A stretch of DNA of 1,326 nt, taken from Escherichia coli (GTDB lineage: Bacteria > Pseudomonadota > Gammaproteobacteria > Enterobacterales > Enterobacteriaceae). Where the stretch lies: assembly GCF_003334255.1 (NCBI RefSeq), contig NZ_QOWU01000163.1. The stretch is one strand, 5' to 3'. Positions 142 to 175 of this stretch are shown here, piece after piece. The translations under genes were made by a program, and so were the position numbers. The stretch's first letter is position 1. The number at the start of each line of letters is the position of its first letter. Under the pieces are notes generated by a model. The model worked only from the letters and a program-made list of their open reading frames with translations. It had not been told where the DNA came from and searched no databases.

Positions 142-175
142 AAAAAAAACCGCAGTACCGGTTACCCGGTCTGCG
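142..175 (-). terminator. Rho-independent terminator candidate between J and stf (minus-strand orientation)
   Basis: Plus 151..175 (cgcag-t-accgg-ttac-ccggt-ctgcg) forms a GC-rich stem of 10 bp with one bulged base. On the minus strand the loop reads GTAA (a GNRA-type tetraloop), and the stem is followed by one G and then a T8 tract (plus-strand a8 at 142..149). It lies downstream of the J stop and directly upstream of the stf RBS. Confidence 0.6.

Follow-up and report, generated by a model that had tools for sequence, protein, structure and literature searches.

Why should a strong, terminator-like hairpin stand immediately upstream of stf, the side-tail-fibre gene, inside what should be a late operon? 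The question is raised by a stretch of 1,326 nucleotides of Escherichia coli DNA, which is treated here at its full length and referred to as the window. The answer that we consider most probable, at roughly three chances in four on the strength of sequence comparison and predicted folding, is that the hairpin is a strong Rho-independent terminator, which points from J towards stf and is the last part still standing of a hok/sok-type insert whose middle is gone.

The J–stf junction and its hairpin

All genes of the window lie on the minus strand, which is thus the coding strand for both J and stf. The features of the junction are as follows.

1320..313, minus strand: 3' part of J (tail tip or host specificity protein), from the listing of open reading frames, with its stop codon at 315..313
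312..129, minus strand: J–stf spacer of 184 nt, read here as a decayed hokW-like type I toxin-antitoxin cassette
150..176, minus strand: terminator hairpin, with its 5' arm CGCAGACCGG at 175..166, a GUAA loop at 165..162 and its 3' arm CCGGUACUGCG at 161..151
149..142, minus strand: U8 tract directly 3' of the stem, its last U 13 nt from the stf ATG
139..135 and 128..126, minus strand: ribosome-binding site GGGAG and start codon ATG of stf, read from the sequence
128..1, minus strand: 5' part of stf (side tail fibre N-terminal domain), continuing past the window edge

The upstream gene is annotated as gpJ in 29 E. coli genomes, and the downstream gene appears in RefSeq as a “prophage tail fiber N-terminal domain-containing protein”. 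The translated start of the latter, MTVRISGVLKDGTGKPV..., agrees with the beginning of lambda orf-401/Stf, and relatives of Stf are encoded in 526 viral stretches. The window matches a prophage of E. coli SCU-104, as well as those of about 28 other complete E. coli genomes, at 99.8% identity, and the plaque-forming PhiR12 phages at 96-98%. The SCU-104 prophage is lambdoid in its gene order (integrase, immunity region, nin region, Q-like antiterminator, lysis genes, terminase, head, tail, J and stf), and its late genes are all co-directional on a single strand. Its Q-like antiterminator, of 273 aa, matches the PHROG family “anti-termination protein Q-like” at 1e-113.

Two further observations concern the genes around the junction. 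Whole-window matches, which include the C-terminal ~270 aa of J (313..~830, minus strand), occur only in the 29 near-identical E. coli prophages and five PhiR12 phages; for other lambdoid phages the alignment is confined to the first ~495 nt of the query, i.e., J upstream of the C-terminal domain, at ~75% identity, so that the receptor-binding end of the J protein in the window appears to be a distinct and rarer variant. At the right end of the SCU-104 prophage, beyond stf and tfa (L002 15997..22015), a YadA-C-terminal-domain (Eib-like) protein and a 1341-aa S6-family (SPATE-type) autotransporter peptidase are encoded, adjoined by a truncated ompW at the attachment site; both proteins look like virulence-type cargo.

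The hairpin stem comprises 10 bp, 7 of which are G-C pairs, with A156 bulged and with U176·G150 as an optional extra closing pair. Downstream of the U8 tract, A141 and U140 lead into the Shine-Dalgarno sequence GGGAG. The combination is that expected of an intrinsic terminator: a G+C-rich stem with a short loop (roughly 5-14 bp and 3-8 nt), and a U tract directly 3' of it on the transcribed strand. Folding of the 43-nt segment 180..138 (minus strand) with RNAfold yields -20.9 kcal/mol, the predicted structure accounting for 81% of the ensemble, and the hairpin is still present when folded in a 231-nt context. Shuffled versions of the same segment average -8.5 ± 2.65 kcal/mol (z -4.68), and not one of 200 was as stable. 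The preliminary description, which had reported an intrinsic-terminator-like structure on the coding strand just before the stf ribosome-binding site, was thus exact in both sequence and coordinates, and the low stem stability that it had named as grounds for dropping the idea was not found. A simple consensus scan also marks a terminator at this site on the minus strand, but as the inner 5-bp version only. In an Rfam scan of the window at E <= 10 the only match was a spurious one to a snoRNA, and the hairpin belongs to no known RNA family.

Folded from the plus strand, the same hairpin reaches -16.7 kcal/mol, without a T-run after it, and a bidirectional terminator is thereby ruled out. Since the T-run occurs on the minus strand only, the element is unidirectional, pointing from J to stf.

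The spacer as the probable remnant of a hok-type cassette

A BLAST search of complete E. coli genomes with the spacer retrieved 29 full-length copies (97.8-100% identity), about 35 genomes in which only the 3' half matched, at ~78% identity, and a few in which the last 48 nt matched at ~90%. Three of the partially matching genomes, designated L004 (strain 2013C-3181), L005 and L006, were taken for comparison. In related prophages the J–stf gap is filled by a hokW-like type I toxin cassette of ~417 nt with the same terminator at its end. In L004 the gap measures 481 nt, contains an annotated Hok/Gef family protein and ends in CCGCAGGCCGG-GAAA-CCGGUACUGCGG-U7, 13 nt before the stf ATG, which is the window terminator with two substitutions. 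L005 and L006 carry a truncated hok followed by the same terminator.

The cassette of L004 bears several marks of a hok locus. Its 46-aa Hok matches the Pfam family HOK_GEF (PF01848) at 2.5e-11, and the NCBIfam HokA and Hok-family models at about 1e-9, under their curated cut-offs. The Rfam model of the sok/hok leader (RF01794) matches L004 2655-2814 with 48.5 bits (E 1e-9, under the gathering score of 59), the first position of the match being GGGUGCC. Over ~395 nt the cassette shares 79% nucleotide identity with hokW/mokW of phages 933W and VT2-Sakai (Sp5). The predicted 418-nt RNA folds with -188.6 kcal/mol (z -7.5), and in the minimum-free-energy structure its nucleotides 2-15 pair at long range with ...UCAGCCGGAUGGCACC, closing the whole molecule; beyond this 5'-3' closure there is a single-stranded stretch and then the terminator hairpin. 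The 25 distinct cassettes are 95% identical, which is too similar for covariation of the 5'-3' pairing to be assessed. A presumed hok promoter, TTGCCG-N17-TACATT, lies 6 nt ahead of the Rfam-defined 5' end. The contrast in G+C content between insert and flanks is small in both cases (0.54 versus 0.55-0.59 in L004 and 0.49 versus 0.51 in the window).

The window spacer was compared with the L004 cassette by global pairwise alignment with cheap gap extension; a MAFFT alignment of the spacer with intact cassettes was discarded, since the large deletion caused the 5' part of the window to be misplaced. A 5' block (GAUUGCCGG... to ...GGGUGCCUUUG.CUGA) and a 3' block (GGCACC.UUUAACACC... through the terminator into stf) are retained, and with the ~330 nt missing between them both the reading frames of mok/hok and the sok region are absent. 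The deletion junction falls in a short repeat: GAUGGC flanks both sides in the intact cassette, and in some intact cassettes (L049, L050) the 3' site reads GACGGC, like the window. In agreement with such a loss, the window contains no Hok/Gef open reading frame (PF01848) and no match to the sok/hok leader RF01794, even at E <= 10, and a tblastn search with Hok gave no match in eight loci of the window type (L007-L010, L012-L014 and L020). Two further features of the spacer can be read against the intact cassette.

211..234, minus strand: second hairpin with a 10-nt loop, in which GGGUGCC at 234..228 pairs with GGCACCC at 217..211 over 7 bp
241..276, minus strand: presumed remnant of the hok promoter, TTGCCG at 276..271, a 24-nt spacer and TACATT at 246..241

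The arms of the second hairpin would correspond to the “tac”-like 5' end and the “fbi”-like 3' fold-back of a hok mRNA, joined by the deletion: their counterparts in L004 are predicted to pair at long range, whereas in the window they form a local hairpin. As for the promoter, TACATT ends 6 nt before G234, and the hexamer geometry together with the start of the Rfam model points to a hok promoter at this place. Its hexamers are separated by 24 nt, compared to 17 in L004, due to a 7-nt insertion, and with that spacing it has probably ceased to work.

The 184-nt gap is thus best understood, from its alignment, as a hokW-like cassette after an internal deletion of ~330 bp, a relic rather than a toxin-antitoxin system. 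Deletion between short repeats (GAT/CGGC) would have removed mok/hok and the sok region, leaving a damaged promoter, the initial ~20 nt of the mRNA joined to the 3' fold-back, a linker of ~50 nt and the terminator. The preliminary description had also suggested a module boundary inherited from a different phage; a module boundary is indeed what the comparison indicates, with the terminator as the 3' end of a decayed hok/sok-type insert and not as a device of stf. The 3' segment of the window type is only ~78% identical to the intact cassettes, and its sub-lineage is marked by the GUAA loop and by a 7-nt CCCCUGA-type insertion, CCCCUGAU, before the stem; an intact cassette of this sub-lineage was not found in complete E. 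coli genomes.

A different internal deletion of hok, from CCGGAUAGC to CCGGAUGGC, is present in L005 and L006 (2870..2990 in each) and also in L011, L021 and L023. Its ends also read CCGGATAGC and CCGGATGGC; it cuts Hok to 21-28 aa and keeps the leader and the terminator. This second type of deletion indicates that the cassette has decayed at least twice independently at J–stf, each time by an internal deletion between short repeats that spared the terminator. In the SCU-104 type of prophage hokD is annotated in the nin region (L087 11668..11823), which, together with the J–stf remnant, suggests that the prophage formerly had two hok-family loci, of which the one at J–stf decayed.

The shape of the remnant also permits another reading, namely that it is an sRNA gene, whose transcript of ~93 nt (234..142, minus strand) would be built like an Hfq-binding sRNA. 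Such a molecule would consist of a 5' hairpin, a single-stranded, A/U-rich linker of ~32 nt and the terminator hairpin with its U8 tract; its predicted fold is stable (-34.6 kcal/mol, z -4.4), the remnant is as strongly conserved in the 29 complete E. coli genomes as the identities above indicate, and prophage-encoded sRNAs are common in E. coli (10.64898/2026.05.13.724894). However, the spacing of 24 instead of 17 nt between the promoter hexamers tells against transcription, no alternative -35 element is evident, a consensus scan reports no promoter at the hexamer site, and Rfam provides no match. Conservation of the spacer is, moreover, no better than that of the flanking genes. The Pas sRNAs described so far (PasA, C and D) are located near the Q, nin and lysis genes and not at J–stf (10.64898/2026.05.13.724894), and a link between them and the remnant was rejected on this account. 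We consider an sRNA gene very unlikely. A further promoter-like sequence that overlaps the J stop codon, TTGATA-N17-GATAGT (301..329, minus strand; 9 of 12 matches), is directed toward the spacer and the terminator; the window contains two sites of this kind, compared to 1.2 ± 1.2 expected, and this one is probably due to chance.

Terminators upstream of stf in related phages

The distribution of such elements was assessed in IMG/VR, where a scan with the 114-aa Stf N-terminal domain yielded 80 loci, which are not independent of one another. These loci comprise 28 distinct 70-nt sequences upstream of stf, and in all but one (L064, in which the stf start is probably mis-set) a G+C-rich hairpin and a T-run precede the stf ribosome-binding site. 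Under strict criteria (at least four consecutive T residues no more than 45 nt from the ATG, abutting a hairpin with a dG of -10 kcal/mol or lower) 78 of the 80 qualify, the T-run ending 11-17 nt from the ATG, and L077 just fails at -9.9 kcal/mol. Of 2000 positions chosen at random in these loci, 61 (3%) pass.

Among the stems at least six sequence types, unrelated to each other, can be distinguished, and the type follows the upstream insert perfectly. Type A (CGCAG.CCGG), to which the window belongs, is found in 34 of 34 loci with hok, as well as in nine loci without a Hok match, i.e., eight remnants of the window type and L034, whose upstream part is too short to score. Lom-like inserts (36-61% identity to lambda Lom) are followed by type B, by the lambda-like type C or by other stems in 31 of 31 cases. 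The J–stf spacers measure 184, 369, ~480, ~730-840 or more than 1000 nt, and their contents range from no insert through truncated hok, intact hok and lom to lom together with hok; the last combination occurs in L052, L065 and L067. The insert thus lies between genes that are adjacent in relatives, and is present or absent among related phages, as in a moron.

Other arrangements were encountered among these loci. In L032 and L033 (1230..2419) a third kind of insert at this place contains three open reading frames of 86, 220 and 81 aa, the last of which carries a signal of the lipoprotein type, MKIIVCTFLLFLVSGC..., and has a terminator of its own behind it, CCCGCAAUUUUGCGGG and a U-run. In L074 to L076 (~1728..2500) J is reduced to its N-terminal ~240 aa, which run straight into the 3' end of lom and a lambda-type terminator, with stf intact; this large deletion again spares the terminator and the stf ribosome-binding site. 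The Stf homologue of L074 (2501..3829) contains a long run of collagen-like GPQGPKGDTGAAGPA repeats.

In L015 and the window the last ~20 nt before the stf ATG, consisting of the T-run and ATGGGAGAAATCT, are identical, and they follow unrelated stems, of type B after lom in L015 and of type A after the hok remnant in the window. BLAST homology of the window to P-EibA and PhiR5_1 begins within the 3' arm of the terminator. An identical segment behind unrelated stems, and a homology that starts in the 3' arm, suggest that the mosaic joints lie in or at the terminator.

From this survey, a strong terminator directly upstream of stf is the rule in this phage group, each one belonging to the insert upstream of it. 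The preliminary description had drawn attention to the place of the terminator inside what should be a late operon; with terminators at the same place in 78-79 of 80 related loci, this is no anomaly, and a strong terminator inside the late operon requires no special explanation. J–stf is a hot spot at which inserts of the lom and hok types alternate, each with its own terminator set against the stf ribosome-binding site.

Within type A, the eight terminator variants keep 98.9% of stem cells paired and show no compensatory changes. In a covariation test 8 of the 11 pairs were invariant and shuffles did equally well; one position shows A-U, G-U and G-C pairs, plus one A·C mismatch. Since compensatory covariation is lacking, the conservation of the stem may reflect recent common descent and is, alone, no proof of constraint. 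The same lack would be compatible with a chance hairpin, or with a structure that does not terminate, e.g., a recombination scar, and has no effect on transcription. We regard this as extremely unlikely, in view of the canonical geometry (a G+C-rich stem, a GNRA tetraloop and eight U residues), the failure of every shuffled sequence to reach the same stability, the homologous elements found at the ends of hok cassettes in over 40 loci, and the analogues in nearly all related loci as opposed to 3% of random positions.

In lambda, polymerase that initiates at pR' acquires from the Q protein a resistance to the terminators that lie further along the late operon. The terminator of an intact cassette would determine where the full-length, inert hok mRNA ends and, in a lysogen, would keep transcription of the cassette out of stf. 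In the window only the stf-shielding effect could remain, and unmodified RNA polymerase that comes in from upstream would be expected to halt 13 nt short of stf. Because the 13 nt between the U8 tract and the ATG offer no room for a promoter, stf would be transcribed by read-through; its expression would come solely from late transcription that the Q-like protein of the prophage has made resistant to terminators, as in lambda. That stf needs Q-like antitermination may soundly be argued from the lack of promoter room, from the Q-like gene and co-directional late operon of the near-identical prophage and from the layout of lambda. We infer termination, Q-dependent read-through and the inactivity of the promoter alike. 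By this analogy, Q-dependence of stf would be the normal lambdoid condition and not a peculiarity of the window, and nothing suggests a difference from lambda. Since each insert's own terminator abuts the stf ribosome-binding site, expression of the side tail fibre would be tied structurally to antitermination.

It could also be argued that the terminator is under selection as a device of stf, either as a partial attenuator that keeps the ratio of Stf to J low or as a required insulator. The occurrence of at least six unrelated stems at one position in 78-79 of 80 loci speaks for this, as do the survival of the terminator after loss of the insert, both in loci of the window type and in L074-L076, which have lost most of J and lom, and the presence of the remnant in propagating phages of the PhiR12 series. 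Yet the perfect match between stem type and insert is what would be expected if inserts bring their own terminators. A deletion that took out a terminator so close to the ATG (13 nt) would be apt to ruin the ribosome-binding site as well, so that survival of the terminator may be an observation bias, and Q-modified lambda polymerase is known to pass terminators efficiently, which leaves little room for attenuation. The suggestion of the preliminary description that the terminator might tune the stoichiometry of the side fibres finds no support. Selection of this kind is therefore unlikely, and the same holds for the broader proposition that the terminator serves as a selected insulator or checkpoint of the side-fibre genes or that the 93-nt remnant has taken on the role of an sRNA. 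If an insulator were nevertheless involved, the constitutive transcription of upstream inserts in lysogens would leave stf silent, and transcription of stf would be left to Q-modified polymerase alone.

Alternatively, the terminator could be the true end of the late operon, with stf and the genes downstream of it being unexpressed, decaying cargo. In the SCU-104 prophage the annotation of stf is indeed that of a pseudogene in two pieces, one N-terminal and one C-terminal, and the portal gene carries a frameshift. The plaque-forming PhiR12 phages, however, share the junction and have a full-length 1.5-kb open reading frame after the terminator; the junction is general in lambda-type phages, and the ribosome-binding site and start codon of stf in the window are intact. 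This alternative is highly unlikely, and the descent of the terminator from a hok/sok-type insert remains the preferred reading.

For annotation, the value of that reading is that the seemingly “empty” J–stf gap of 184 nt, which the PhiR12 phages share with about 30 complete E. coli genomes, can be described as a probable decayed hokW-like cassette. In phage engineering, swaps of stf modules have to reckon with a terminator only 13 nt from the start codon. The enrichment of Hok in prophages has been documented already (10.1101/2025.08.07.668861); the J–stf junction as a recurrent insertion site of hok and lom, and the 184-nt spacer as a hok shell, may not have been spelled out before.

Comparison with known systems

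The closest positional counterpart of the window terminator is the lambda terminator between lom and stf (orf-401; NC_001416 ~19612-19638), which has the same position and orientation, its T-run ending 11-14 nt before the stf ATG. Its structure is AGCCCGCCGG-AACC-GGUGGGCU-U6, with the end of the U6 run 14 nt from the orf-401 ATG and as opposed to the U8 tract of the window, and in the same 43-nt frame it reaches -18.1 kcal/mol, compared to -20.9 kcal/mol. The lambda terminator follows not hok but lom, an insert that is expressed in lysogens, and lies within the Q-dependent late transcription unit. Homology between the two stems was rejected, since their sequences are unrelated; only the position and the context of the downstream ribosome-binding site are analogous. 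Lambda has an additional, weaker hairpin between J and lom. The literature on mapped terminators of the lambda late region (t'J) and on lambda Term-seq yielded nothing usable.

With the hok/sok system of plasmid R1 the likeness is one of mRNA architecture. In the full-length R1 hok mRNA a tac/fbi closure is followed by a 3' hairpin, the slow removal of which activates the mRNA (PMC9841398); in the intact relatives of the window, likewise, the terminator follows a 3' fold-back that is predicted to pair with the 5' extreme of an mRNA of ~400 nt. Unlike R1 hok/sok, the window is without a toxin reading frame, without sok and probably without a working promoter, and the two sequences cannot be aligned beyond the family level.

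The closest characterised cassette to the intact one at J–stf is hokW–sokW of the Stx phages 933W and Sp5 (VT2-Sakai), which shares with it the 5' end GGGUGCCUUU... and the ...GGCACC fold-back. In 933W, however, hokW is located after lom and before ORF L0129, not before stf, and has neither a type-A hairpin nor a T-run past the fold-back. The order in 933W (L088 330..810) is lom, a terminator CCCGCUGUGAUGGCGGG-U6 and the hokW cassette, lom and hok being neighbours as in L052, L065 and L067. The annotated start of L0129 lies inside the fold-back element (the ATG within ...GATATGGCACC...), with no terminator between. An origin of the terminator as an ancestral part of the hokW cassette is unsupported, as the homology with 933W stops just after the fold-back element. 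Judging from this comparison, the type-A terminator may have been acquired at J–stf and be specific to that cassette lineage.

A moron is a unit with its own promoter and terminator that can be expressed from a repressed prophage (PMC3594210). Like the morons of Juhala and Hendrix and of Cumby, Davidson & Maxwell (2012), the J–stf inserts would be extra transcription units between two conserved late genes. Unlike a complete moron, the window keeps the shell only, with a terminator and a presumed promoter. In kind, the element is an intrinsic terminator at a moron boundary, the positional analogue of the lambda lom–stf terminator and, by descent, the analogue of the terminator of hok mRNA.
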